The position numbers and the translations under genes are program-made. The notes beneath the pieces are model-generated. The model saw nothing but the letters and a program-made list of their open reading frames with translations. It made no database searches and was not told the origin of the DNA. DNA of 62,293 nt, filler included, from Basidiobolus ranarum (Eukaryota): the NCBI GenBank assembly GCA_040143965.1. It is 7 parts of 7 records of this genome, joined end to end, with 100 filler letters (N's around TTAATTAATTAA, not from the genome) between each part and the next. Parts side by side here need not be neighbours in the genome. Positions count along the whole stretch, not along the records: positions 26,792 to 35,597 come from JASJQH010007792.1; 6 more parts are not named here. One strand, 5' to 3'. Positions within the stretch are counted from its first letter, which is position 1; the number at the start of each line of letters is the position of its first letter. This document shows positions 2,029 through 53,584 of the stretch, one piece after another.

Positions 2029-3613
2029 TTAAGAAGAAGCGGATGCAACTTTAGGTTCCTTCTTGGTATCAAAGAGGGCTTTGATGTTCTCAGTGCTCAA
2101 AGACTTGGGGCGTTCAATGGGCATACCCAAGGCACGATCCCAAATAAGTTGAGAAAGGACACCAAGACCACGGGAGACACCGAAGAGAACAGTGTAGAAG
2201 TCTTGTTCAACCAAACCGTAATGTTGAAGGAGGACACCAGAGTGAGCATCAACGTTGGGCCATGGGTTCTTGGTCTTACCGTGTTCAGTAAGAACTTCAG
2301 GAACAATCTTGTATAATTGACTGACCAACTTGAAGGTAGGATCGTTAGGCAAATGCTTCAAGGCGAACTCACGTTGGCAAGAGTAACGAGGATCAGTCTT
2401 ACGAAGGACGGCATGACCATATCCGGGTACGACACGTCCAGATTTAAGGGTCTTCCAAACGTAATCTCTGATGGTATCATCAGAAACATCGGCAGAACCG
2501 AGTTCCTTGCGCATCTCTAAGATCCAACGTAAGACTTCTTGGTTAGCAAGACCGTGAAGAGGTCCGGCAAGACCGTTGAGACCAGAGGCAAATGAAAGAT
2601 AAGGATCGGAGAGGGCAGAACCAACCAAGTGGGTGGTGTGAGCACTGACGTTACCACCTTCGTGATCAGTGTGAATGGTAAGGTACAAACGCATCAATTC
2701 AACAAATTCTTTGTTGTCACCGAAGCCCAAAACGTTAGCCATGTTGTGGCCATAATCGGTGTTGGGGTTAAGGGCAGGAAGCTTTCCATCCTTGAAGACG
2801 TTTTGGTAGATACGTCCGGCAATGTTGGGAAGCTTGGCAATCAAGTTCATGGAATCCTCATAGGTATATTCCCAGTACTTGGACTTGTGAATACCTTGGT
2901 GATAAGCCTTAGCGAAGGTAGATTCGCTTTGGAGAGCGGTAACAGCCAAAGAGAATTGAGTCATAGGATGGACGTTCTTGGGGAGGTTGTCCAAAAGGTC
3001 CTCGACAAACTTGGGGATGTCGGCACGAGAAGCCCATTCAGTTGAAAGTTCGTTGACTTGCTGTTGAGTGGGGATCTCACCAGTTACCAAAAGCCAGAAG
3101 AGAGCTTCAGGGAGGGGCTCCTCGCCACCAGGGGCAGCTGGAAGGCTCTTTTGGCATTCGGGGATGGTCATACCACGGAAACGGATACCCTCTTCAGGGT
3201 CCAAAACGGAACCCTCCCAGATAAGACCCTTGATGCCTCTCATACCACCATAAACCATATCAACAGTAACATCGCCCAAAACCTTGGAACCATGTTCTTT
3301 CTTGATTCTCTTAACTTCTTCTTGCTTTTCGGGGATAAGCTCGCTAAGACGATCTTTCAAACTCTATTGTTTATAGCAAAGGTTAGTTATCGGAGCATGA
3401 TTAAACCATCGGAATAAAATGGAATTTTACCGAGTTGGCAGGAGTAGAGTAAGCACGAACAACTCCGACAGTAGTAGCGGCCAACTGACGACGAGCAGAA
3501 AGCTAATGAATAAAAGACTCGGGGGTAAGTAATCGTAGACACATTGTTATACAAAAATAGCAAATTGTATCAACCTTAAGGAAAGAAGAAACAGAGGAGC
3601 GGAGGAGAGACAT
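2029..3613 (-). CDS. CIT1: Mitochondrial citrate synthase, about 481 aa; exons 3613-3575, 3502-3431, 3363-2029
   Basis: [33 protein letters not shown] and WPNVDAHSG motifs. Two phase-0 GT-AG introns join an Arg/Ser-rich presequence ([22 protein letters not shown]...). Confidence 0.97.
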
Positions 3614-8834: not shown

Positions 8835-8934
8835 NNNNNNNNNNNNNNNNNNNNNNNNNNNNNNNNNNNNNNNNNNNNTTAATTAATTAANNNNNNNNNN
8901 NNNNNNNNNNNNNNNNNNNNNNNNNNNNNNNNNN
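8835..8934. other. Artificial contig spacer N44-TTAATTAATTAA-N44
   Basis: The same 100-nt spacer occurs at 17764-17863, 26692-26791, 35598-35697, 44502-44601 and 53405-53504; it has stop codons in all six frames. Confidence 0.98.
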
Positions 8935-14296: not shown

Positions 14297-15475
14297 TCAC
14301 TTACGAGGCTTAGAGCAATAACCATACTGTGCTGGCCAATTCACATCAACTTCTAGATCTTGAGCCGCCTGAAGCGCCCAAGTGGGGTTACGTAGGAATT
14401 CCCGTCCTATCAGTACCAAATCAGCTTCGTCGTTCTCAATGATCTTATTGGCTTGGTGTGCTTCAGTAATTAATCCTACTGCTCCAGTTAATAAACCTGG
14501 AACTTGATGTTTGACCTGCTCAGCGTATGTTACTTGGAAGCCAGGCTTAGCTGCGATCTTTTGTGTGGAAACGTTGCCACCTGTAGAACAATCCAACAGA
14601 TCAACACCCAGAGGGTAGATTCTTTTGGCAAACTCGATCGTATCGTCAATTGACCATCCCTTTTCAACCCATTCGAAGGCAGAAATACGGAAGAATAAAG
14701 GCTTTGCGACCGGCCACACTTGACGAATAGCTTGAATTATCTCAACAGCAAGTCGCACTCTATTTTCAAAGCTACCTCCATAATCATCAGTACGCTGGTT
14801 ACTAATTGGAGAAAGGAACTCACTGATCAGGTAACCATGAGCACCATGGATTTCGAGAACATCGTATCCTATCTGATCTGCACGAATGGCTGCATCTACA
14901 AATGCTTGCTTAACGATGACGATATCACTTAGAGATATTTCATGAGGCACTGCCCAACCTTCATCCCAGCTAATGGGAGATGGGGCCCAGATGTCTTCCC
15001 AGCCACCCTGTGCACTTGTGAGAGTTTCTCGGTCAGATTTGTTAACGATGAAAGGTGGAGGAGTGGATGCCTTGCGACCTGCATGGCCGATTTGTATGCC
15101 TACCATGGAACCAGCTCCATGGATATAATCTACAACTCTCTTCATTGGGATCATGTGTTCATCTTTCCATAAACCGACACAATTGGGAGAAATTCTACCA
15201 TTAGGGAGTACTGCAGTAGCTTCTACGATGATTAAACCGGCACCATAATTGGCATATTGACCTAAATGTACAAGATGAAAATCGTTCATAAAGCCATCCT
15301 CAGCAGAATACATACATAAGGGCGGGACTGCGATGCGGTTCTTTAATGTCACATCACGTATAGTTAAAGGCTTGAAGAGACCAGGGATTTGGCCTTGATG
15401 AGTGGGAAGTACTGTGCCGGGGGCTGGTTTGGCTTTCTGAACAAACTGAGAAGAAATATTTTGAAGTATAGTCAT
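14297..15475 (-). CDS. NADH:flavin oxidoreductase / Old Yellow Enzyme, YqjM(NamA)-like class; intronless, 392 aa
   Basis: LFKPLTIRDVTLKNRIAVPPLCMYSA, QIGHAGRKAS, EIHGAHGYLISEFLSP..N.RTDDYGGSFENR, GREFLRNP.W, WPAQY; first ATG at 15475. Confidence 0.95.
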   Translation of the reverse strand: MTILQNISSQFVQKAKPAPGTVLPTHQGQIPGLFKPLTIRDVTLKNRIAVPPLCMYSAEDGFMNDFHLVHLGQYANYGAGLIIVEATAVLPNGRISPNCVGLWKDEHMIPMKRVVDYIHGAGSMVGIQIGHAGRKASTPPPFIVNKSDRETLTSAQGGWEDIWAPSPISWDEGWAVPHEISLSDIVIVKQAFVDAAIRADQIGYDVLEIHGAHGYLISEFLSPISNQRTDDYGGSFENRVRLAVEIIQAIRQVWPVAKPLFFRISAFEWVEKGWSIDDTIEFAKRIYPLGVDLLDCSTGGNVSTQKIAAKPGFQVTYAEQVKHQVPGLLTGAVGLITEAHQANKIIENDEADLVLIGREFLRNPTWALQAAQDLEVDVNWPAQYGYCSKPRK

Positions 15476-15553
15476 GTTAAAAGTCTGGATTTGTAGTGCT
15501 AAATACCTGTGATAAAAAGCACTCACTATATATACTAGTATAGATACTACAGA

Positions 15554-17763: not shown

Positions 17764-17863
17764 NNNNNNNNNNNNNNNNNNNNNNNNNNNNNNNNNNNNN
17801 NNNNNNNTTAATTAATTAANNNNNNNNNNNNNNNNNNNNNNNNNNNNNNNNNNNNNNNNNNNN

Positions 17864-20516: not shown

Positions 20517-21272
20517 GAAATTCACTAAGGATACAGAACCAAAGACCTCTGAAGATATTGAAATCATGAAACATATTCCTTACAATAGCTATAGTTGGAA
20601 GTCTCTTATATACAACAACTGGTACTAGGCCTGATATTGCTACAGCAGTAAGCATGGTAAGCAAATATATGGAAAATTCTGCAATGAAACATTTGATAGC
20701 TGTGAAACAGATAATATGCTATTTGAAAGGAATAATACATCACAGAATTCTATTTAGTAAGCAGTACAACATGTCCCTTATTTTGGAAGGATATGCTGAT
20801 GCAGGCTGGGCTAGTAATACAGAAGACCATAAGTCCAGAACTGGATATGTGTTCAAGCTAGCTGGTGGCCCAATAAGCTGGATTAGTAAGAAACAACAAA
20901 TTGTTACATTAGCAACTACAGAAGCAGAATATGTGGCAGGCTCTATGGCTGTTCAAGAAGCTATATGGCTAAGGAGTCTTCTCAAGGAACTAGGATATGA
21001 TCAAGCTAATCCTACCCCAATATATCATTAGTTGTATCAGATCACCAAAAACACCTGAGCATCACTTAAGGATGAAACATATTGACATAAGACACCATTT
21101 TGTATGAGAGAAAGTTCAAGACAAAGAAGTGAACTTTATTTATTGTAATACTGAGAACATGCTTGCAGATATACTAACAAAACCACTCAAAACTTCAAGC
21201 TTTGAGATGTTAAGAGCAGGAATAGGCATTAGTGAATATAAGCACAATGCTGAATAAGAATCAAGGGAAGGT
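20517..21272 (+). mobile_element. RT/RNase H 3' end of a second copia family
   Basis: VGSLLY...TRPDIA, GYADAGWAS..DHKSRTGY, SKKQQIVTLATTEAEY, KHIDIRHHF, MLADILTKP; purine tract near 21262-21271. Interrupted at its 5' side by the family-A LTR. Confidence 0.88.
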
Positions 21273-22037: not shown

Positions 22038-23848
22038 TTTACAACAGCTATGTCCAGCTGCTGTGAAAGCAAAGATCTAGTATTAATATAGAAGTATTAC
22101 CAAATGATGCATGTGGACATTGAAAACTATTAACGATCAATGGAAATGAAAAACTTGTTGTGTGGAAATGTTGAAATATTCAATGTATGCTAAAGGAATA
22201 TCTGAAATGAGCAATTATAACACTTACAATAGGTATTTAACTTCTAGTACTGTGGAATGTGGGAGACGGATTGTTGGTGGTTGATGAGCTAGTAAAATAC
22301 AAGGTAATCGTGAACATCACATGACAAAAATCCAGGTTGGTGATTTTAGCTTAGACAATACGGGTAATGAAACCAATGTCACTGGGTTGGGTGACTAGGT
22401 CGGGTCACTTCATTGCTTCAATGGACACAATGTGCGATTGTGTATGAATTAAGAGTGAGATTGATTGTCCTGAGTGTTTCAGATACCTTGATTCTTTCTA
22501 CTACACAACGAATCCCTAAGACATAGATCGTTCTAATTCGTAGTGTATAAATATCCCGGTCCTGGGATGGCTAGTTCTTTGCTAACTCTTATACATTGAT
22601 CTTCTTAACAACATGCCAAGCACATTACTTAGTAACACTGAGTACATAAAATCTTTACAACTTCGTATGCTCTCGAAAATCTTTGAGCCTGCTTTAGCCA
22701 CGTTACAAAAAACCGGAACGCACCCTGGCTTCCAGAGCAAGTTTCTTTTTAGTAAATCCATGAAAAAGACATCGAAAGGCCTGCTTACCATAACTGAAGA
22801 CCCTCATGAATATTAAAGATAGAAAGTAGCCGTAGGTATAATCCTTCTCTAAGTTTTAGCTTTTAAGACACTTCCTAAATCACCCATGTAAATGACTGCT
22901 TGTCCATAATAAAACACTTTTCAATCAACTTCTAGATTCTGTATCCGTGCCTGTACCTGGACTTCTCCTAATTTGTTGAGCAGGATATTATGATGCTTAA
23001 TATTCCAGAATATGCGAACTCGAACCTGAAATCATCAGCTGCAAACGGATAGGTATTTCTAGATCACCATCATGAGTACATCTCTATTCGAGTCTCTTAA
23101 CCTCGGTTCACCACATTAAGAAAGTATTTGGCTCTAATCCACCATCGCTCGCCATCGCTCTAATAATACACATTGGCTACATTGGTCATCTGCTGCATTG
23201 TCTTGATCTGGGTGAGAAATTTGAGTGTGCATAATGTTCGAGCCCTTGGAAATTCCAATTCTTAAACGAATTAACATGTAGTTGATCTTTCCGGCTCATC
23301 AGTCTAACCAGATTCAACATGGATAAAGAAAGATTCTGGAGTGGTCAGCGATAAGATGAACTTTATCCATCCGCTGTATGCAAGTACAGTCATTGGAGAA
23401 TTTTCTAGATTTCTTTAGAGTTGGGATGAATCCTATCTTAATGTAGATAAATGAATGACTAATTTATTAATAACCAATTTACTCTAGAGTAGCAACTGAT
23501 TTATTTATGAAGGAGTAACAACTTATTCAAGAGTAGCAGTCGCCAAACGTCAACCGCCACTAGCATGGCTGGAGATTAGATATGGTGGCAAACTGATTTC
23601 TTCTGGTTCGATTAATTGGTCAATGTATCCTGAATAGGTTAATACTTACTACATTGTGGATCTAATTTAGGAGAGGAGAGGAGAGAATCAACACACTTGG
23701 AGAATAATGACACCTTCGACGTTCCTGGCTCATTCCCTGATTAGTACAAGTCTGGGTTCATGGAAAGATGGCATTTTCTACAAGGTTGATCGATCACTTA
23801 GGCATATATAAATGAGATGGATGAGGAGGAGTCAGTATTTTAATTTCA

Positions 23849-25235
23849 ATGACTACAACACATCACAACTTCATCAACATTGATGAGTACTACGGAGATA
23901 CTTCTCACAAGTACGTCTATTTACACTTCTTAGCTTTGATTACATAAGTACTGATCTAATCCTCAATAGTAATTACACGCTGATAGTGCGACAGCAACCC
24001 AAAAGAGCAAAGCGTAGCAGTATCAAGGATAAAATCGGTGAGAAGCCGATGGATCCACCACCTATTGTTCAAGTGAAGATTGGCAATGATAATCCAGAGG
24101 ATAACGAGTAAGTATGAGGTACATCCCGTACCTTTTTCTGAGCATGCTGACCAGTAATAACATCTTCACAAGTAATAACATCTTCACTGTAGTTACCTGC
24201 TTCAACATCCAGGGTTATTCATGCTTGCAGAACTAGTCGGACCTGAGGATGTTATGGAAGAACCCATCCCAGCCACAGCCATCGTTGGGACTCTCTGTTC
24301 TTCTCTATACAAACTCAAGGATATCAACAACACATATGGGGGATTTTTCATTTTCCCCGAAATCTCAGTAAGAGTCGAGGGGGATTTCCGATTGAAATTC
24401 AAACTGTACGAGATAATATCGTATGTAACTTAATATTCAATGACCTGCCTATCTACCGTTACTAACGATCCAATTAGTGGTCAATCTATCTTGATGAAAT
24501 GCACCTATTCAGATATCTTCACAGTATATTCGTCCAAACATTTTCCGGGAATGGAAGAGTCCACCTTTTTGTCCCGCTCATTCTCGGACCAAGGTGCCCG
24601 TATCCGAATTCGTAGGGGTAGCAAGATGCTAAACAGATCGTAAGTGGTGACATATCACTTTTGTAGGCTTCACTTGGAACTAACTTTTTGCGTGTACTAG
24701 CTCCCTACCTGGTAACACATCCAGATACCTCGAGAACAAACGTAAATCCATCGATAGCCAATGTTCCGAGCCACTATACACATCACCGAATAAGAGTCGT
24801 CGACGGTCCATCTTTCGTGAAGGAAATGATCTAGCTTCGGACGAAGAAGGCATACCGTTTCAAATGACACTTCAAGAGATTTCACCAAAACTGAACCCCA
24901 ACTTTTCATTTACGGAATTAAACTCGGCACTGGACAACTCGAACAGAAAGGAGCATCTGGATTCGATAAGTTCCTACATCCACACCCATTCAGCACCCAC
25001 GAGTGCTGGCTTAAATAATTCAGACGATATCTCATGGAGGTTGAGAGCAAATTCCGATAGCCATTGCAGATCTAAATATTTACCGAATACTGATCCGAGA
25101 AGAAATATCGAGGAAATCTTGCGTAAAAGCGAGTATCAGATATTCAACACTTTGTTTGAATCTTATTTACACAAAAATCGGATACCTGTATCAATACGGC
25201 AAGATGACGCTACTTTGAACTTATCGTCTGTGTAG
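23849..25235 (+). CDS. Velvet-domain regulator (VosA/VelB/VelC family); exons 23849-23910, 23970-24107, 24193-24420, 24478-24639, 24701-25235
   Basis: [33 protein letters not shown]...[62 protein letters not shown]; four consistent phase-2 introns. Confidence 0.95.
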
Positions 25236-25922
25236 TACGTCATGTCTCCTCCCCTTGCTTTCAATTAGTCTGTTCCTTCACCTTCTAATCCTCAGTCCAT
25301 ATTTAGTATTATGTACAATAGTATTGTGATCTAGACCACCAAGGATAACTAGATCGATAAATAGGCTTAATTAATTGATCGAATCGTAGTTGTGTTTCGT
25401 CAAAAATAAATCTGTAGATTTCGGCTAATCATTGGAGACTCTTTAATCCTGGAAATTTAGCTAATTTAGGATGGGGCTTTCAATACCAAGGATGGCCTCA
25501 TTTCTATATATCCCTACATATCACCAACCCTTTCTTGTTACATAAGCTCTACGGCGAAGCCCTAGACGCAACTATTTCAGATTATCCTACACATGCTCCT
25601 TTAGCAAGCAGAGTTGAAACAAATGGAATCAAGGTCTAGAAAGAAATATTTCTAATCCATACTTTTCCATACCAATGTGCTTATATTTATCTCATTTGTG
25701 TTCTAAAATCTGTAGATCATTTAGAATAACATAAGCCACCCTACGTATTTATATATATAACTTAATCAACACTACAAATCAATCATCCATATTTGGCATT
25801 TCGATGTTTTCATGAGCGTAACAAAAGTGTTCTTTACTAAGGATGAACTAAGTATCTATTGCTCTTAACACACTAAAGAAACTCCTTCGCGTTCCAATTT
25901 TATAGCCCGTTTTAAAAAAGAA

Positions 25923-26581
25923 ATGGATCCCTTGAGCCCTTTGAATTTAACTCGGGAAGAATATTCCGATTTGGGTCAGCAATTAAATAACGCGTTAATT
26001 TCACCCATGTCCCCGACTCACGAACAACTCGACACCACATCTAACAATAATCCAGCCGAAAAAACAAGTCTATCGCTATTTACAAACTTACCTTCAGAAA
26101 ACTCTTCAGTGAACCTAAATTCCCCCACTATTTTTTCAAATCCCAACTTAACTTCACAAACATCTATAAGAAGTACTAATTCAACCACCATACTCAGTCC
26201 GAATCTCGAAAATCCCAGGTTAATTGTTTCCATAAACCGCTCGATTAGTGAGTGTTTTAGAGGAATGTCGTTGACGTGAATTAACCCTATTAATATATCA
26301 CTAGTGGCGAGCATAAACTTTCTTCACCCAAATATTTGGAGGTTCCAAATCTGACTTCAAGTACACTTTTCTACGATATCCCCAACGTAACGCATATCTA
26401 TAGTAGAAACAATGTTTTGTCATGAGTGTTAATTCCTTTGTAAAAATCGTTTTCTCGTCAGAATGACCCTCTTACCGATATGCTTACTCGACATGCTACT
26501 ACGGACCACCGAAGACGTTCATTATCGGTTAAAAAACCGTTTGATAACCGAGAAGATCTAGAAGCTGTGTATGAGATGATG
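25923..26581 (+). CDS. 5' exons of an unknown gene (weak guess: TRAPPC12-like); truncated by spacer
   Basis: Ser/Pro-rich first exon, GT-AG introns at about 26219-26304 and in the 26420-26461 area, exon DPLTDMLTRH...EAVYEMM followed by GTAAG. Confidence 0.45.
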
Positions 26582-26804
26582 GTAAGAGATGGAGCTGCGC
26601 CACTTCATATTTAATCTACAGTAGAGCTGAGGGGGGGGAGCGGGGGGGGGGGGTGGGGGGGCCGTTGGGGGGGGGCGCGGGGCGGGGCGCGNNNNNNNNN
26701 NNNNNNNNNNNNNNNNNNNNNNNNNNNNNNNNNNNTTAATTAATTAANNNNNNNNNNNNNNNNNNNNNNNNNNNNNNNNNNNNNNNNNNNNTATCGAGCA
26801 GATC

Positions 26805-30512: not shown

Positions 30513-31131
30513 ATGAAACGCACGCGGGAAAAAGCACCTAATGCTAAAAGCAATAGCATTCCTTCCAAACGTGTGAAGGAAGAAGATAGCTCCACTGGGT
30601 TGGATATTGTACAACAAGGTATATTTCCTCTAAAGATCTTTCTTTTGTTAAATCAATTTATGGACATAATGAATTAAACCTATTTTGGTGGTAGGTAAAA
30701 TTTGTAAAACGACTTGTGCTGATGTTAAACCGATTACCCCATTGTCGGTCTCACCACCATTGTTAAAAAGAGCAGTGATCTTAATTGACCTTGACCAAGC
30801 CGCGCATTTGATCAAAATTATAGATAAGCCCATACCAAACGTGGAGGTACACTTGTTTGCCGGACCTACTTTTCCTGATCACAAACTTGGGTATGCTGAG
30901 CTTCATCGTACAGAGAGACGTATTAATGATGCTTCTGATTATGAGCTAGCCTTTTTCGCTTTTAAGAAGCTATTTGAAAAATACTTAGACAACAAAATTG
31001 TATATGTGTACAGCTGTGATCGCGCCCTTGATAATGTATGTCAACTCTTAACAGAGAATGGGGTTGAGAGTACAATGTTGTCTCGCACTTCTTTACTTCA
31101 TGAAGTACTGCAAAAATATTTCACCTCATAG
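30513..31131 (+). CDS. Small PIN/NYN-like domain protein with a basic N-terminus; exons 30513-30618, 30695-31131
   Basis: VILIDLDQ ... DASDYELAF ... VYVYSCDRAL pattern typical of NYN/ZNF451-type PIN folds; phase-1 intron. Confidence 0.65.
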
Positions 31132-31876: not shown

Positions 31877-34800
31877 ATGGATACTAAAAGTAGTTATTGT
31901 AGTTGCGAGTGTGACAAGGCCATGGATGGAATCTGCTGTCTTTTGTGCTTGCTGAGTTTCATTAATCCTGAAAGTTCTTCTACCACACAACCTGTATGGT
32001 ATTAGCATTTTCAATTCAGCTATTCAAACAGGTGCCTAACATTGTAATACAGTTTTTTTCCCCCAGGTATCAAGATGATGATGTGTTTTCATATGAAGAG
32101 CAGGATCAGACGAGTGGAATCAAACTTCCCAGCAACATCAATGAAATTTGGTCTAGACAGGCTCGAAATCTAATATGTACCTCCCACGGACGCACACATA
32201 TTCAACAGTCTCTAAAGTACCTATGCGACGAGATCGTAGGTAAATCCCTTCATTTTCTCTGAAATAAGTGAATATATTTTTGACAATCCTCGCTTAGATG
32301 TTTTAACCTACACCTACGGAGGGCGTAGAAGAGGAGTACTAGTTTATAGAGAACATCTTAAAATATCAGACGCTCTATTTGTAATTCAAGTACTTCCAGC
32401 CCTCCTAGCTCACATTATGAAAGCCATTCAGCTACTAGAGATATCTTTGAAAGCTCCTACCAAAGCCATGCTGAAGGAAATAATTTCAACTATATGTGGT
32501 GTTTTTATGACTGGAATATATAGTTCACAGATCGAGTGGAAGGAACAAGGAGAGACATCTCCTACACGGAATGTTCAATTGGGTAATAGTCTCTTTAGCG
32601 AAAATCAATATCTGTTAATAGAATCTAACTTACATCAACATTCTAGTCATTGTATTACTTGAGCTTCTTGTTCAATTCATACCAAGTAATCCTAAGGTTA
32701 AAGGGATTTTGGAGCTAAACAATGGAGACCAAATCAAGCATTTTGATGTGAAACTTCCCACTAATTTAGTCGATCAAATGGAGAATTTAATAGCTTTGTT
32801 GTTAGACAAAATATGTATCCCGGCGATCCTTGTAACTATGTTTTATTATTTGTATTCTTGGGTCGACTTTAATCGTTGCAACACATCAGGTATCGTTTGA
32901 AAACTCTATGGATATTTTGAAGGAGAAATCTTTCTTGAAATTGCTCACATTATTGGAGAAATATCTACTTCTAATATCAACAAATCCCAAGTCTCTCTAT
33001 AGATATTCATCAAACCCTAGAGAGGCTCTAGTATTGAAGCTGGGTATTTATATGAATTAACTGCTCTTCAATTCGTATAGCTTAACTTTTTTGAAGTTTC
33101 CTCAGGGTTCTTTGAGCTGTGTTTAAATTTGAAGAAACAGTTTCTGGGAGATCAGAATACTTTGCAATCTGCACCACAACAGCATAACGCCTATACACTT
33201 TTTGATGCTGTATCTATAGGAATAATTTACAATATGAATATCCACTGCCTGAGCAAATATCATTATGCATTACCAGAATTTCAACACCCTTACATATATG
33301 CGTGGATTCTGGGTATTGGTACTATTCGTGAAGAATCATACAAAATTGGTACTAAATGAATGTTTTCAAGGGCCCGTGAAAGATATGATTTGGAAACTAA
33401 GAGAAATGAAGCAAACAGATGCACTGGATATAAACTTTCAACAGGCCATTATCACTCCTTTGTTCATTCTTTCAACACAAGATTGCCTTCGGTAAGTGCT
33501 TTAAATTAAAATCTGATGGAATTGTACAATAACCATATATATGTATAGCTCCAAAGCTCCAGAGACGGACTTGATTGAAAACCTATCTCACTACACTGTT
33601 AATCATTCGAAATTAGAAGCCATCGGAATGAAAAGTTTTCTGCAACTTCTGTATATTCTTCTTGTAACATCAACTTTAAACTACCAATATTACTAGAAAT
33701 ATAATATTGACCTCTAAGTATGTAGGACTGTGATAACTGTTGTGATGGCTCAGAAGGTATCTGATCAAGTCATCATTCCTGAGTGTGAACAATCATTGAT
33801 TTCTCAGCAGCTTTACATATTTCCAAGCCACTGACATATGCCAAGATCGTGCAAGCATTTATCGTGATGTTAAAGAACCATAACCACTCCACTAACGAAG
33901 GTTCACTTTGTGATCCTTCATCTTGCCCAATGAATCTACTGGTTCATAATGGACATACGTATTACCCTTGGATATGGCAAGCTCTAGTGGAGAAGGGAAC
34001 CTTTAGTCCTCTGGCTGGGAAGTTGGTCTGTACCCAATAACTCTTCTTTCGATATGTTTGCGTACTTACTTTACTTTAGATCTTACATTGTATTGAAATC
34101 AAGTCGATGATGCCAACTAAAGATAAAGATAAATTTGGCATCGAAATCAAATATCTCCTCTCCAATCCTAACGTTGATACATTACTTGTAAGTAGTGAAA
34201 CTATTGGCATGACAACTATATTACTCTTTGACCATTCTATCATCTAGGATACGGTTAAAGCTTTAAATTTGTCGGATGAAAATAGAAAATGTTTCATGCT
34301 GGTGTGTCAAATAATCTCAGATGTTATACGCAACAGAGAACTTGCAAATGCGGATGCAAGAGTCAATACCGCATCACCAGATCTGGTGAAGCTATGGGAA
34401 ATGATTATTAGCCAATGGGTGCCAAACGCATCCTTCCCTATACCATGTAAAACCTCAACAATCCACCCTATAGTCAATTCCGAAACTAAAAAGAAAATTG
34501 ATACAGGGCGTGACAAATTAAATAAGCTCATCATAGATATCTGTAAGCACGTATCAAATTGCGAGTGTTTGAGAGCGATCAACATAAATATCCAACCAAG
34601 TAAGTCATTTTACTATTACACAAAAGTCAACTAAACTGACAAGATTCACATTGTAGCAATTGATCTTACTTTAAGGTGGGACACCACTATAATATATTTC
34701 ACATTTTGTTGGTTCAAGCACAAATATGTATAACTTATATTAGGTGGATACAAGAAGTGAATGTACTTCTAACTAAAGTTGCGCAACAAAACTTCTCTAA

Positions 34801-35516
34801 TGAAGAGTTTATGGACTGCTCCAGTAACGAGCAATTGTACATCTCTCTGACCAAATATTTGAAAGGGCTGTGTGGTATATTGAATTTTTTTAATATTTTA
34901 ATCAACTTCCAATCTACTTTACCCTTGGAGGAAGAGTATAAAGGTAAGGTTGGGATATGTCTGATATATTAGCTCTCTTCATTAATACCTTCTTAGTAAT
35001 ACATCAGGCCTTGCAACATCCAAATTTTCTCGGTTCACTAAAGCATTGGTGTTACGATATGATTTCCAAATCCAATCATGAAATGTTTGCCACAGTAGCA
35101 TCTACTGGGCTTCAGTTAATACATTCAATTCAAACAAGCGATATATTTCAAGTTTAGTTTGGGTTCTGATTTTGATAAACCCTCTTTATACTGATCCATT
35201 ACGATTTGTTAACAACGTAGATGAACTGGGCATTACGAAACTTCATTGATTTGACTAACGTCACGCGTTTGATATTGGAAAAAGACCTACGTTGGCCTGT
35301 ATTCAGTGAGTGCTATTTCATTCATCTGTGTAAGTTCAAACGCATCAACTGGTTTAGTTTCATTGGTTCGTATACTTTCGTCAGAGATCAGATATGAAGC
35401 CAACTACAATCAATTGGGATCAAGTAACCTTGGAGGTTTTCGCCTTGAACCAATGGATAATCAAGCTGTTGCAGCCGATAATGGTGTAGAACTGAAGGAG
35501 AATACCTTTGTTATGG
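31877..35516 (+). CDS. Large multi-exon (more than 12 exons) helical/ARM-like protein, MEI1/PRD1-like; ends approximate and 3' end possibly cut by spacer
   Basis: Chain of short ORFs joined by 50-80 nt GT-AG introns (e.g. 33044-33096); several segments are colinear with my recollection of vertebrate MEI1. Confidence 0.6.
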
Positions 35517-35697
35517 TTTGGATTCGTATCATCAACGTGTGTAGTAGTCAGGTAGAGTATACGAATTGATTTGTAATATTCTTTGAGATAAATATTTNNN
35601 NNNNNNNNNNNNNNNNNNNNNNNNNNNNNNNNNNNNNNNNNTTAATTAATTAANNNNNNNNNNNNNNNNNNNNNNNNNNNNNNNNNNNNNNNNNNNN

Positions 35698-36480
35698 GAT
35701 CTATAACAGGATACTTATTTTGTTGCTGTAATGGAGCTTTTTCTGGGAATTCAAAGAAACAACCTACTGTAGCACTTTCAAAAACAGAAGCAGAATACAT
35801 GGCAGCCTGTCAAGCAGCAAAAGAAGCAATATGGTTAAGAAAACTCTTAACTGATTTAGGTTATTCTCAAAATTCATCAACTACAATATTTCAAGATAAT
35901 CAAAGTTGTATCAAATTTGCTAAAAATCCCACATTTCATAATAGAAGCAAACATATAGATATCAAGCATCACTTCATCAGAGAGACTATAGAGAATAAGT
36001 TTATTGACTTAACTTATTGTTATACAGAAGACATGATTGCTAATATATTAACCAAACCATTAGCTAGACAAAAGTTTGAGAAATTTAGACCTTTATTAGA
36101 ATTAGTTAATATGACTATTTAGTTGAGGGAGAGTGTTGAAATTAGCATTGCCTAAACATCTGTATAGTCATATATAGCTTATACTTAGTTATCTCATATT
36201 TCACTAAGATATTATCCATTATTCTCAATCGGAATTTACTTAGAATATTTTTACCAACTTAGAAGTTCTCAGATATATGGATTTTTCAAACTTGTGCTAG
36301 AAGCCCCAAACTTTGCACACATGTTCCTAGGACCTTCCTTAACACATTCTACACATTTGTTTGCTTACATCTTGACAAAACTATAAATGTCAACTTTCTA
36401 CTCAATAAATCAATAAGTGAAAACTACCAATTCCTCTAATCCTCCAAACCACTTCCAACAGGCTCCCAAATACTTTAACA
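35698..36480 (+). mobile_element. 3' end of a copia family-A element: RNase H, PPT and a full 3' LTR (36134-36480)
   Basis: SKKQPTVALSKTEAEYMAA...QDNQS...HNRSKHIDIKHHFIRE...LTKPL; AGTTGAGGGAGAG then a 347-bp TG...CA LTR. Confidence 0.95.
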
Positions 36481-37475: not shown

Positions 37476-38692
37476 TTTAGGACATTGCTTTGAGGTGTAA
37501 TAAATTGGGCATAACGTAGTTAACGTGTACGTAAAAATCAGATTTGATGAAGGTCAAGCAAGAGAAACATAGAAATTGTCGGTGTACGCGCGTTAGAATT
37601 CTAAGCATTCAATCTTGTTACTCAGGATTTGTTGGTGGATGACAACCCAACCCAACGTTCATTTCGAAATTCCTTTAAGCACGAATAAATAGCAGTGAGT
37701 GGGGAGGGCCGTTGAAAACCAGTTTGTTATTTGTTTTGTAATATATTGAGTGAGGGAACGATTAATAGTTTTATAGCCTCACAGTCTAGGATTTCTCTAA
37801 TATATCGTATTGTATCAATCTTTAACGATAATAGTCGTGGTTCAAAGACCAGACTTGGAATATTACGCTTCTTGTTCAAAGAGAGAATAGCGTGAGTTAT
37901 CTGCGCCTAGGATTGGTCCACTGCTACATGAAAAAGTCTAAACTATTATGCCTAAAGAGTCAATGTAACGTCAATCTCCTATCAACGCTATGTATACGCC
38001 ACCGCCATTACAAAGTCTGACATTGGCACGAGAAGACATTTATCTAGAATCTTGATCGAGTATATGCGCATAGACATTGACTGTCCACCATGATAAATCG
38101 ATTTTAGATAGGTTAATCATCCGCTTGGCATCCACTCAAGACTTGGAGAGTCCACGCGCCATGAGCTCAGCTTGTGGACAGTAGGTACACCTAGATTTGC
38201 ATTGAATCTCCTTAATAGACCGGGGCCAGCCATAATCCATGAGCGAAGGCCAAAGAACGTGTCTTTTTCTTCAATCGTTCGTGTTCTCTACATTATATGA
38301 CCCGTCCTGTTTCTGGGAACATCGTCGATTTTTCTAATTTCCGAGTCCAGCCAAGGGTGGTATGACGTCAGAAGTTCCATCTGGTGAACCTCAGTCGTTT
38401 ACATTTAACACATGATGGTGCGACAAGATAGGCGCTTACCTTTAAGTCAGTCTGACTAGTTTAAATTGTTTCATTACCAAGTGGATGAGTGAATTTAATA
38501 AACGATCGGCCCACCTCCTCGGCTCCGGCCCTGCCCCACCGAATGTCCACAGCCAATCAAGTAAGTGATTGGCCTGCCCCCCTTTTCTCCCTGCTCAACC
38601 CCAGGAGAGTATCCACAATACAGACGGTGCTTAAGTGTACACTCGAGGGAGCGTCACTTGCACAATTTCTTGTATTCTATACGGTCATAGAA

Positions 38693-39833
38693 ATGTCTTG
38701 GATTAGTCAAACTCCCACCAAACGTGTATTCAACACAGGAAGCACTGCTGCAGGCAGCAGTAATCCAAATTTAACTGAATTCCTTCGTAGTTGCAAACTT
38801 TCGCAATACTATAATGATTTTCTTACTTCTGGTGCCAGCGAAGACGATGTTCCCATGCTTTTGGATTTTGCCGATAATGAAATTTCCGAATTATGTTCAG
38901 CCATTCCTTTGAAACCATTTCACACTGTGAGTTTCAAAAGAGGTCTTAGAATATTGAAAGAACAACTGGGTATCACACCGCCACAAGTATGTGTTGATTT
39001 TAGTTGAAGGTTATAGGCTATACACTAACGTATGGATTTTGTAGATGAGTCTTAAGAGCACTCCGTCAGACGCTCACTCAACACCTATTGCTCCATTTCA
39101 CTCTGTCACTTCCCCTACTTGCACAAACACGGTAGCTCAACCTATTCATAAGATCCCAACCCCCATTTCAATTTCTCCCGAAGTAGTTGAGAGATTTCAA
39201 CCAGAGGCGGCCACCACGATCATCGATACTAAGAGTCCTGTGTATCCATCGGCAACCTCCATATCTACCGTTGGCTCCGAGAAAACCGGAAACCCGAACG
39301 AAGATTTGATAATAGAAAGAGCGACTATATACGGGCGTAAAAGTGGACGTTCTTTGACCAATTATGAAAAAAGCATGAACGACGCGGCTATTGCTATTGC
39401 TTTGGCCGAACCAACGCTTATTTTAAACCGAGGTCAACTTATAGAAAAATCAAAGGCCAAACTGTTGCAAGATGGTTATGTTTATAGTCGTGGTAGATCT
39501 CGCTCCAAGTTGGTTCGAGCAATCAGTAATTCGGACAGTATACAAGAACCGCAGGCTATCAACGGCACCCTTACACCTGTTTCAAGCGATTTGGGAGGTC
39601 GAGAGGAAGACTCCAGTTCAACTTCTGATAAGGAACACCAAGCAATAATGTCAGGGAAAGCACGTAGACGTACCAGTCGCGAACAAGACGATGGTGAAAG
39701 CGATACAAAGATGAAAAACAAGAAGCACAAGTTCGACAAGGAAAAAGATTGGGATAAAGAGAGAGATGGAGAAAGAGAAAAAGAGCGAGATCTCAGTCTT
39801 CGAGGTATTCTTCAACATGATGATGATAATTGA
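38693..39833 (+). CDS. NAB (NGFI-A/EGR-binding corepressor)-like protein with NCD1 (SAM-like) and NCD2 domains; exons 38693-38986, 39045-39833
   Basis: LTEFLRSCKLSQYYNDF..SG..EDDVPMLL.....EI.EL....PLKPFH...FKRGLR (NCD1-like); IIERATIYGR...RSLT.YEKSMNDAA..IAL.EP.L..NR.QL......GY.YSRGRSRSK (NCD2-like); basic NLS-like tail. Confidence 0.8.
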
Positions 39834-44501: not shown

Positions 44502-46273
44502 NNNNNNNNNNNNNNNNNNNNNNNNNNNNNNNNNNNNNNNNNNNNTTAATTAATTAANNNNNNNNNNNNNNNNNNNNNNNNNNNNNNNNNNNNNNNNNNN
44601 NATTGTCACAATATCTTAAAAGATTGATGTCTTGATTGTCACTTTGTTTAGATTAGTATTTAAGCTAAATAAAGTCCACACCATCTGGTGCTTTTCATCC
44701 CCCCTAACCCTCCCTTACCCTTACCAGAACATCTATACCCTAACCCTAAGTATTCTGACAGTATTTGGTATGTTTAAGTATTGAACCTAAATATACAGCA
44801 TTCATTATTCAATATCATACAAGTTAATTCAAAATTCCTTTTTTGGCTAGTATTTTTACTGGTTTATCACTGAGTCACTACTTTAGTTTGGCACTCCCTT
44901 CATGTTTTCTACTATTGTCTGTACCAGTTTTGACCTGGCTTATTGTTCTTGCATCAAATTTGTTTGACAATTCTAACGCAGCTATTTTAAACCATATTCT
45001 TCCATATATCTTAATCTTGACTTGCAAAATAGGTATATTGTCACTTGACTAGCTTACTCATTTTGTTGAAAAAGGAGTATATTTCTTGTTAATTCTCCAT
45101 TCCCTTGGTAACACCTTCTGTGATACCGTTGGAGGATTGCCTATGTTAAATTTGGTCTTTCTCAAAGTGCACCTGGAGCAGACTCCGCTAATGAAGTTTG
45201 TATATTTTTTGTCTAGTATTGCATAACATTGACGAACACTTCATGCCATTCTTCCGATTTTAGCCCACAAGCATTGAACCTTTCGGGAGAGTTCCTTCCA
45301 ATAAACTCTTTGCACATGTAACAATGATTCAAGCCGCGTAGCTTTTATCTAGTACACCTCATGGAGTAGCTTTTCACATCTTATTTCCGGCTATATGTCT
45401 TACTCCGGCTCATACGGATGTGTTCTTCCATAACTTTCGAAGCAATACTTTCCGTAAAATATCAAATTCTCTACAAACAAAGGAATTAGTGCATGTCTCG
45501 AAATTCTGTTTCACGACTAACTTACAGTTATCAAGCTTTCTAATGGGCAAGTTTTAAATCGGCAACCAATGATGATATCTCGTGGCTCGAATAACTCCTT
45601 AGATTTTCGAATTTAAGCTTACATACTTCATGCATAAACTGGTCCCAGATCCCTAAGCTGCCTAATCATTTTTTTACTGTGTTGACATGGCATAAAACTG
45701 GCCAATAATAATAATAAAGCAAAACTAATAGGTCAATCTCGCTGATTCTTACGCATGCCAATAATGGAAACAACCAGCAGTAGGTGAGATAGAAACAGAG
45801 CGTTTCGTACAAGACGGCACTCATACCTTCATTAAGATATCGGTGTTCCCTCTAGGGCTGTGCACTTGAGATAGCAGTTGCGAATGGATAAACCAGGCCT
45901 GGCTGAAAACATAGTATAAGCAACGCACATGCGATTACTAATTGATTACTAAATCTAATCAGAAATGTTTAAATTTAATTTCCATTCGTTCTGCGGATAA
46001 CCAGGTTTGGCTCTTCTCGTTCGATCTGTTTCAACTTACCTAGCCCTCTCGCCAAGAAAGCTTTGAGACATTTTCGCTACCAATGTTGTGGCTCCCCACT
46101 CAATTATTAGCCAATGTCAAGTCGGGATCTGAAAATGAAGTAGAGTCAACAACCGAAAAGAAAATTGCTCGCTATTAGTTTGATTTTCCTTTCCACCATT
46201 GCCAAGAACCTCAGTTACTACAAATAGGAACATTGGTAGCAACTTCTCTAAGAATTCATTAGCTTCGTTCAAA

Positions 46274-48243
46274 ATGACTTTGAAACTAAACAACATCTTC
46301 AAGGCATGGTGTGTCTTCTTTGTCTTCCTCTCGTTTGCATACGCAGATACTCCACCCATTGCTTATACACCTGTCTCTTCAGCAAATGTGGAGTTATCTA
46401 AGTATACAAGCTCAGTAGTTTTAATGCCAGATAAGTATACGATCCATTGGCGGGTGGATCAACAAAGCCAGCCACCTTCAATCACAATCCTATTGCAAGT
46501 TAAAACCACAGGATGGTAAGTTCCTTTTCACCATGGTTCACAATTCGAGACTGCACTAACATGACTCAGGGTCGGATTTGGATTTTCTGATCCAGCAACA
46601 GGAGGAATGCCCGGATCGGACATAGTCACTGCCTCTACCACAAAGAATGACACTTATTTTACAACCGTGTTGACTGATCGTTACGCAGTGAAAAAAGATG
46701 ACCCTCCTCCCGACAATTGTCAGAGCTACACACCGAACTTTGGATACCAAACTACCGATGGCCAGACTATGGTTGAATTTACGCGCCCACTAAATACTAG
46801 CGATCCTCAGGATCGGGTGGTGACGAGTGGGTCCGTATCTATAGTTTATGCATTTGGTGATGATGGTATGACCGACGTTTCCTACCATGGTAACAACCGC
46901 GGGTATACCGAAGTTACTTTCTATAGTGGCAATAGCACAGATGCTAGCAATCTAGTACCTGATGCACAAACGTTTAATTATACTACTGCCCCCTTTAAAC
47001 TTTCTGCAGAGCCCACACTGTACTCTTGCACAGGATTTGTTTTCGATCCTTTGGCTAACTCTACGAATACCACTGGACATATTACAGCTGTCTCACCGAT
47101 AATCGGGTCGGAATACGTTCATCATCTGCTTGTCTTCGTATGCCCAAATGATGACTTCTTCAAAAAGGTTCAAAATAACCCTACTGTCTGCGCTTCATCT
47201 AATCCCAATGACACCACTGAGGGGATGACGGGTTGCTATGGTCTGGTTTATGGGTAATTCCAGAATATTCAATTTCTTATGAAGAATCACTTGAATCTAA
47301 CATACTATTTAGCTGGGCTATAGGAGGTGGTAAACTCGAGTATCCAGCCGAGGCTGGACTGCCTTTTGGTGATGTTAATGACCCCTTTACTACTAAATAT
47401 GTGATAATACAAATCCACTACAACAATCCAACTGGAAGCGATCCCAATATAACTGACCAAACAGGAGTATCAATTCAATACACTCCGACAAAACGACAGT
47501 ATGATGCAGCCTGGATGGTTTTGGGAGATCCCGTTGTGGCTTCTCCTCCTTTGACCTTAGGCAAAACTGATCCAACCGAGCTTCAGTTTACTTGCCCAGG
47601 TGAATGTACTAAGGTTTGGCCTCACGAAGCACGCATATTTGCCTCAATGCCCCACATGCATAGCTATGGAACTCAGATCTGGAGCACTGTGACTAGCACT
47701 GATCCTACATACAAAGGAAACAATCCAAGAATCATTGGTAGTGCAGATGGAAATACCAGTATAGTTATGGATCGTTCGGAGTTCTGGGAATTCGATTTTC
47801 AAAGAATACATAAAATGAACGATTTTTGGATTCGTCCAGGTGACCGCATTAACACGCACTGTGTGTAAGTAGATACTGCTTTAAATATTAATGAATACTG
47901 GAGATCTTACTACTTACTCTATTGAAGGTACGATACTTCTGTGAACAAATTTCCGAACCTGACCCCCAACGCTACTACAGTGAATTTTGGCATTGCTTCG
48001 TATGATGAAATGTGCATGCACTTTGTGGCTTACTATCCACGTATCGAAGCAACCTATTCAAGCCTAAACATGCCTTTCATGTATTGTGGCGTGGCGGATA
48101 GAAATCAAACCATGACTTTATGTGGAGTTACCGCTAATGATACTATGCCTATCGCCAATCCCCCTACCCTATCTTACCTTCAAGATCCAAAAGGAGTGGA
48201 GATACTTCAATTCGGACAGCCATCTGCTACATGCCCTGCTTAA
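46274..48243 (+). CDS. Secreted DOMON + copper type II ascorbate-dependent monooxygenase (DBH/MOXD1/tyramine beta-hydroxylase-like); exons 46274-46515, 46570-47253, 47313-47864, 47928-48243
   Basis: Signal peptide; DOMON motifs GWVGFGFS...GMPGSDIV, VEFTRPLNTSDPQD, YHG..RG; CuH ligands VHHLL and IQIHYNNP; WAIGG; CuM ligands PHMH and DEMC; three consistent phase-2 introns. Confidence 0.93.
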
Positions 48244-53404: not shown

Positions 53405-53584
53405 NNNNNNNNNNNNNNNNNNNNNNNNNNNNNNNNNNNNNNNNNNNNTTAATTAATTAANNNNNNNNNNNNNNNNNNNNNNNNNNNNNNNNNNNNNNNN
53501 NNNNAATATGTCCTATTTATAGTTTACTATGAAATAGGACTATTGGACGTGCTTAGATCATAACAAACATGCCTGTTAAGCATG

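Follow-up and report, generated by a model that had tools for sequence, protein, structure and literature searches.

A candidate fungal relative of the meiotic break factor MEI1/PRD1 in Basidiobolus ranarum, encoded by a gene completed across two contigs

Does an early-diverging, zygospore-forming fungus such as Basidiobolus encode a relative of MEI1/PRD1, a factor of meiotic DNA breakage in animals and plants? The question is raised by a spliced gene of Basidiobolus ranarum in a stretch of 62,293 nucleotides (hereafter the window, at its full length) from assembly GCA_040143965.1, which a preliminary description had proposed as a homologue of this family. Orthologues of MEI1 are known in vertebrates and plants, according to the available text of PMC10997794 (2024). 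The premise of the preliminary description that model yeasts have no recognised orthologue agrees with two sources, as far as their available text goes: PMC3966222 reports no apparent homologue in yeast, flies or worms, and a table in PMC8577252 leaves both yeasts blank for MEI1. The second premise, that MEI1/PRD1 is needed for meiotic breaks in mammals and plants, is likewise in line with the available parts of PMC12642689 and PMC8577252, in which MEI1 is described as indispensable for meiotic break formation in both mice and plants, as mutated in human infertility and as a protein of unclear biochemical function.

The gene lies at the end of contig C7792, on the plus strand of the window. 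It starts with an ATG at position 31877, and 16 GT-AG introns of 51-79 nt divide it there into 17 exons (31877-35551) with a single open frame; together with six exons on contig C10320 these form an intact 23-exon model of 1,119 amino acids (aa). Exon 1 (31877-31993, aa 1-39) carries the protein's only CLxC (aa 21-24) and has no cross-species support, as ORX78594.1, the protein of Basidiobolus meristosporus discussed below, begins later. Exon 2 (32053-32239, aa 40-102) encodes an acidic linker and then a His-containing helix, and exon 3 (32298-32582, aa 102-197) a helical hairpin predicted at low confidence, with ICGVF at aa 167; exons 4 (32647-32831) and 5 (32890-33043) cover aa 197-258 and aa 259-310. 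Exon 6 (33097-33312, aa 310-382) matches the start of ORX78594.1 weakly (12/24 identical, E 1.3). Exons 7 (33371-33491) and 8 (33549-33663) were placed by the splice model, and exon 9 (33726-33756) is a small, Cys-rich exon of 31 nt without ORX78594.1 support. The 10 residues of exon 9 include three cysteines and the protein's only other CxxC (aa 462), and they are absent from the B. meristosporus prediction. Exon 10 (33808-34025) is 73% identical to ORX78594.1, and from there the splice model and ORX78594.1 both support exon 11 (34080-34187), exon 12 (34248-34599, the longest, with 117 aa), exon 14 (34744-34943), exon 15 (34997-35151) and exon 16 (35221-35305), as well as exon 13 (34657-34675), which at 19 nt is among the least certain and is covered by the ORX78594.1 alignment. 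For exon 17 (35358-35551), which ends at aa 914, the acceptor at 35357 and the preceding 52-nt intron were placed by the ORX78594.1 alignment. Intron 17, of 57 nt in all, is cut by the contig end, and its first part occupies 35552-35597. A span of 31877-35516 had been proposed for the gene, of which the start coincides with the ATG but the end is wrong, since the last exon of the window runs to 35551 and six more follow on C10320.

The continuation was found by searching the genome with ORX78594.1, which extends past the end of the window contig. Positions 35555-35597 overlap the end of C10320 with 40/43 nt identical, and three mismatches are what one would see if the assembly broke where two alleles or recent copies diverge; taken together with MND1, which has two loci in this genome, the overlap hints at heterozygosity or partial genome duplication. 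Exons 18-23 lie on the minus strand of C10320 (2294-2213, 2161-2074, 1993-1957, 1892-1752, 1686-1559, and 1504 to a stop near 1361) and add 205 aa; the 37-nt exon among them is, with exon 13, the least sure of the model. A previously unnamed gene is thereby completed across two contigs. It is single copy in the assembly (65 Mb, 13,754 contigs) as far as the searches see, with one match for each of three exons searched and one locus for ORX78594.1, the 3′ continuation on C10320 aside.

That such a model is a hand-splicing artefact of AT-rich DNA, or a pseudogene, is a reading which we consider highly improbable. It could draw on the fact that no annotated protein of this genome with exons 3, 6, 10 or 12 came back from the searches, and on the codon-usage score of the whole gene, which is slightly negative (-0.125 bits per codon, under a model for which six other frames of the window served as the training set). 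However, the missing annotation is explained by the contig end that splits the gene. The longest stop-free spliced chain obtained by dynamic programming under the same splice rules is 930 aa on the real strand; the opposite strand reaches 334 aa, and 30 of 30 dinucleotide shuffles stay within 144-440 aa. Moreover, the joined exons match the independently predicted B. meristosporus protein with an E of 6e-154 (53% identity over 460 columns for the window model, and 48% over 646 columns for the full 1,119-aa model). The gene is real and intact, and for exons 10-23 the artefact reading is largely refuted. GC content is 38% in the exons and 31% in the introns.

ORX78594.1 (667 aa; K493DRAFT_308674) was the sole homologue among three candidates in a protein search with exon 10 (E 1.7e-28), and is a clear orthologue. 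Its exon content agrees with that of the model from exon 10 up to the C-terminal region, and it confirms the frame of exons 10-17 and of the 3′ continuation. It is a hypothetical protein, apparently a partial and partly mis-spliced prediction, which begins inside exon 6 and then skips ahead, which leaves exons 1-5 and 7-9 unsupported by a second species. In all sources it is unnamed; it forms a singleton cluster, with no Pfam family and no solved relative. Outside Basidiobolus, no database search linked the protein to anything, with single exons as queries and, for Pfam and solved structures, ORX78594.1 as well.

The proposal of a MEI1 homologue had been built on six peptide segments said to follow one another in the spliced product. 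Five of them do lie in the spliced frame and follow one another as described (aa 19, 147, 247, 304 and 404), but the sixth, GEIFLEIAH (32922), falls in another frame of exon 5, bounded by stops at 32898 and 33000, and is outside the model. Reading exon 5 in that frame would require two frameshifts or two atypical introns of about 31-45 nt with poor sites, as against 58 and 53 nt and normal splice signals for introns 4 and 5 of the model, and was rejected by inspection on splice grounds. Codon usage over 33 codons of exon 5 favours the GEIFLEIAH frame (-0.6, versus -7.9 for the model frame), and the reading of this exon therefore retains a small doubt.

Turning to the protein itself, its first 1,037 aa are rich in leucine (13%) and isoleucine (9%), and the hydrophobic moment exceeds that of shuffles at the helical angle of 100 degrees (z 3.1), compared with a z of 1.0 at 170 degrees. 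Folded as single sequences, exons 3 and 12 yielded low-confidence helices (pLDDT 58 and 42) in models too poor for use, and self-BLAST gave no internal repeats. In Pfam, no family exceeded the cut-off in 16 window segments (three weak, unrelated matches, E 0.009-0.16) or in four further segments, and none matched the 667-aa ORX78594.1 at E up to 10; specifically, no ARM/HEAT model passed its curated cut-off in any segment or in ORX78594.1. Word-indexed protein searches returned no homologue among 86 candidates for exon 3 and 95 for exon 12, solved structures searched by sequence gave nothing for exon 3, exon 6 or ORX78594.1, and metagenome scans confirmed 0/149 stretches with exon 3 and 0/271 with exon 6. 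A Foldseek search with the model of exon 3, a poor fold, returned no matches.

Several leads from these searches were rejected. The three phmmer matches of exon 6 among 1.84 billion representatives were all to unrelated repeat proteins (a TPR protein and two tandem-repeat sequences). The best scores of exons 6 and 12 in the ESM Atlas, 0.83 and 0.84, represent low recognition, and a DUF4218 lead from the same source had just 84 of 256 features in common. Neither MEI1 nor PRD1 was ever returned, with protein-database queries that were single exons of 71-117 aa. Two outcomes had been named in advance as fatal to the proposal: the better match to another ARM/HEAT family did not appear in Pfam, but a match to MEI1 or PRD1 did not come from the single-exon queries either. 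MEI1 is described as fast-evolving, and blank searches are consequently weak evidence against kinship, yet they are no evidence for it.

Evidence for kinship was sought by comparing the model by eye with Arabidopsis PRD1 (O23277), whose sequence was taken from a table in the available part of PMC9957857, both the position counts and the block scores being manual; by this count PRD1 has 1,330 aa. About a dozen short parallels, recognised by eye, keep the same order in both proteins along their whole length (model/PRD1): at the N-terminus CLLC 21/CLIC 50 and His 88/67; in the middle ICGVF 167/ICSVF 460, Pro 255/547, LVS 309/587, LP 368/639, Tyr 437/694 and Trp 525/765; and towards the C-terminus Trp 704/912, Gly 747/941, Trp 824/1023, Glu 925/1067, HLKS 954/YLKS 1089 and Trp 991/1137. 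The offset to PRD1 is near zero before aa 167, and from there on falls gradually from 293 to about 140, reversing only slightly on the way. By the same alignment, about 265-315 PRD1 residues have no counterpart between aa 88 and 167 of the model, where the gene has merely the 58-nt intron between exons 2 and 3; this gap of some 300 residues in the N-terminal half, implied by the alignment, had been overlooked in the preliminary description. The segments chosen there from human MEI1 parallel PRD1 too, at a near-constant offset (293, 292, 278 and about 257). Both the possible kinship with MEI1/PRD1 and the N-terminal gap are readings made by eye.

Scored by hand, the individual PRD1 blocks reach raw BLOSUM62 values of 9-30, which is within chance: each of eight random partners of the same composition gave 48-70 blocks of at least 18 and 2-8 blocks of at least 26 in a band of ±40, with best blocks of 29-37. 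The N-terminal CLxC block alone stands above chance, with a score of 30 and an expectation of 0.03 in the first 60 by 60 residues; CLxC occurs once in the model, and its chance within the first 60 aa is 0.006 for a motif chosen post hoc. Residues identical to PRD1 are kept in B. meristosporus in 11/15 cases by hand count, which adds nothing over a background of about 59%. Against the putative human MEI1 fragments given in the preliminary description, the best hand scores of fragment pairs are 45 and 30, the former equal to an E of about 0.12 per protein pair. The fragments would lie at a similar offset in human MEI1, a placement that is not independent of that description.

Among known proteins, PRD1 resembles the model in being long and leucine-rich, with an N-terminal CLxC followed by a His and, by eye, parallels in the same order; it differs in its greater length and in the roughly 300 N-terminal-half residues without a model counterpart, and its meiotic role is genetically shown (PMC8464057, available text). 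Mammalian MEI1 is of similar size (1,268 aa in mouse, according to the available text of PMC3966222), and the putative fragments of it given in the preliminary description pair with five in-frame segments of the model; the accessible part of PMC12642689 presents MEI1 as structured over nearly its whole length, with Armadillo-like helical folds, and as one of the fastest-evolving meiotic proteins. Such rapid evolution accords with a fungal protein whose single homologue, from its own genus, is 48-53% identical. Importins and generic ARM/HEAT proteins share the amphipathic helical pattern, and helical hairpins appear in the low-confidence exon folds, but the fungal protein differs from them in having no Pfam family, no solved-structure match and no self-BLAST repeats.

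With respect to the meiotic setting, the genome contains SPO11, as a multi-exon gene on the minus strand of contig C3 (about 22900-25970), as well as MND1. The gene is single copy in a genome with the SPO11 pathway, which is a weak feature of membership, common to many genes. It had been suggested that REC114, MEI4, IHO1 and TOP6BL be sought, and none was detected: four Pfam models (two for REC114, one each for TOP6BL and IHO1) gave no matches, and the same models matched none of 14 control genomes, making these searches uninformative on partner absence. A Mei4 candidate on contig C7776 (E 0.28) was rejected, since its sequence looks like that of a bZIP coiled-coil protein. The broader idea that early-diverging fungi kept this arm of the break machinery is partly supported, in that the host is such a fungus with SPO11 and MND1, but the MEI1/PRD1 identity lacks a search match and the partners were undetected.

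On balance, the gene is probably the Basidiobolus orthologue of MEI1/PRD1, a working scaffold of about 1,120 aa, non-catalytic and alpha-helical for the most part. The proposal of homology is strengthened by an intact, single-copy and conserved gene, but is left without a search match and with blocks at chance level. The balance is tipped by three things together: segments chosen from human MEI1 also parallel PRD1 in register, the protein has a suitable length and composition, and the searches brought up no rival family. The main competitor, which we regard as unlikely though deserving of serious weight, is a fast-evolving helical scaffold of another or undescribed family, whose resemblance to MEI1 would amount to chance matches between long leucine-rich helical proteins. 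Chance does yield short blocks in numbers equal to those of the PRD1 comparison, the PRD1 identities fall on residues kept in B. meristosporus about as often as the background, no database link reaches beyond Basidiobolus, and a wrong frame was the source of one quoted match in six, an illustration of the ease with which such matches arise. Against an unrelated scaffold, however, speak the CLxC placed where PRD1 has its own, the near-constant PRD1 offset of segments picked from human MEI1, and the fit of size and composition with no competing family, and the failed queries were 71-117 aa long.

A different possibility, improbable in our judgement, is that the protein does descend from MEI1/PRD1 but, having lost the region of N-terminal interactions, is no longer a break platform, its role being reduced, rewired or non-meiotic. 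The by-eye offset jump across a short intron would fit such a descendant, most PRD1 interactions being carried by the N-terminal domain, and the expected partners were undetected. Yet all 23 exons form an unbroken frame that two species conserve, SPO11 and MND1 are present, the partner searches show nothing as they matched no control genome, and the gap depends on the same by-eye alignment.

Should the protein be a working orthologue of MEI1/PRD1, its role can be sketched from what is known of the family. It would be made in meiotic prophase, presumably in the zygospore here, and would couple the SPO11 cutting complex to axis-bound factors of the REC114-MEI4-IHO1/Mer2 type, leading to double-strand breaks. 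It could serve as a platform of the kind proposed for PRD1, touching SPO11, a TOP6B-like subunit and other break proteins and connecting to Mer2/IHO1, and could join axis-bound clusters with REC114, MEI4 and IHO1 in the manner of mouse MEI1. PRD1 is described as a platform linking SPO11/MTOPVIB to other break proteins, with an N-terminal domain needed for most interactions (PMC8464057, available text), and mouse MEI1 is placed in axis-bound clusters with REC114, MEI4 and IHO1 in the available text of PMC10997794 and PMC8577252. The fungal protein would have kept a short N-terminal Cys/His motif and the helical body of the middle and C-terminal parts, and would seemingly lack about 300 residues of the PRD1 N-terminal repeats. 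By eye, the apparent gap falls inside the PRD1 interaction domain, and the CLxC and His of the extreme N-terminus have parallels; either the retained short motif is where the contacts are made, or the fungal protein is rewired. A natural 'mini-MEI1', in which an N-terminal Cys/His motif is almost directly joined to the helical body without some 300 residues that plants use for most partner contacts, is conceivable, with our judgement leaning slightly against it.

The gene is a probable new fungal member of MEI1/PRD1, and would be the first in the literature searched, in which no paper on a fungal MEI1 was found (subscription journals were mostly outside this literature, and supplementary ortholog lists may hold fungal entries). 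Certain proteins of zygomycetes and chytrids may already carry the name MEI1 through automatic annotation; if so, databases implicitly contain the wider range. A fungal member is expected if the family descends from the shared ancestor of plants and animals, and its existence would therefore be a filled gap more than a shock. If the assignment is true, (i) the loss in yeasts dates to after the split of the zygomycetes, (ii) a third, distant branch becomes available for locating conserved residues, (iii) the shortened version points to the essential core, and (iv) a bridge is provided to hidden descendants in yeasts and other Dikarya. In the case of a true mini-MEI1, a minimal core would be marked out for a protein of unclear biochemical function.

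The window is a string of contigs, each some 8.8 kb long, between which lie N runs that contain a short fixed linker (filler at 8835-8934, 17764-17863, 26692-26791, 35598-35697, 44502-44601 and 53405-53504), and neighbours across a linker are not genomic neighbours. Upstream of the gene, on the same strand, there is an exon of a small gene without Pfam match (30673-31131, +). At 38489-39833 (+), a SAM-like N-terminal part and an NCD2-like part resemble animal NAB transcriptional co-repressors, with Pfam matches that are both under the cut-off (SAM_NCD1 E 0.003, NCD2 E 1.6e-4), and a gene at 46184-47868 (+) combines DOMON with a copper type II monooxygenase of the dopamine beta-hydroxylase/MOXD1 type. 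Fragments at 35718-36122 and 20570-21031 (+) read like what we take to be RNase H and reverse transcriptase of a Ty1/copia retrotransposon. Ordinary genes are also found, namely a citrate synthase (2029-3363, -) and an NADH:flavin oxidoreductase (14297-15553, -), the latter of which is in NCBI/UniRef and falls in a 90% cluster with two Basidiobolus ranarum proteins among the three members examined.
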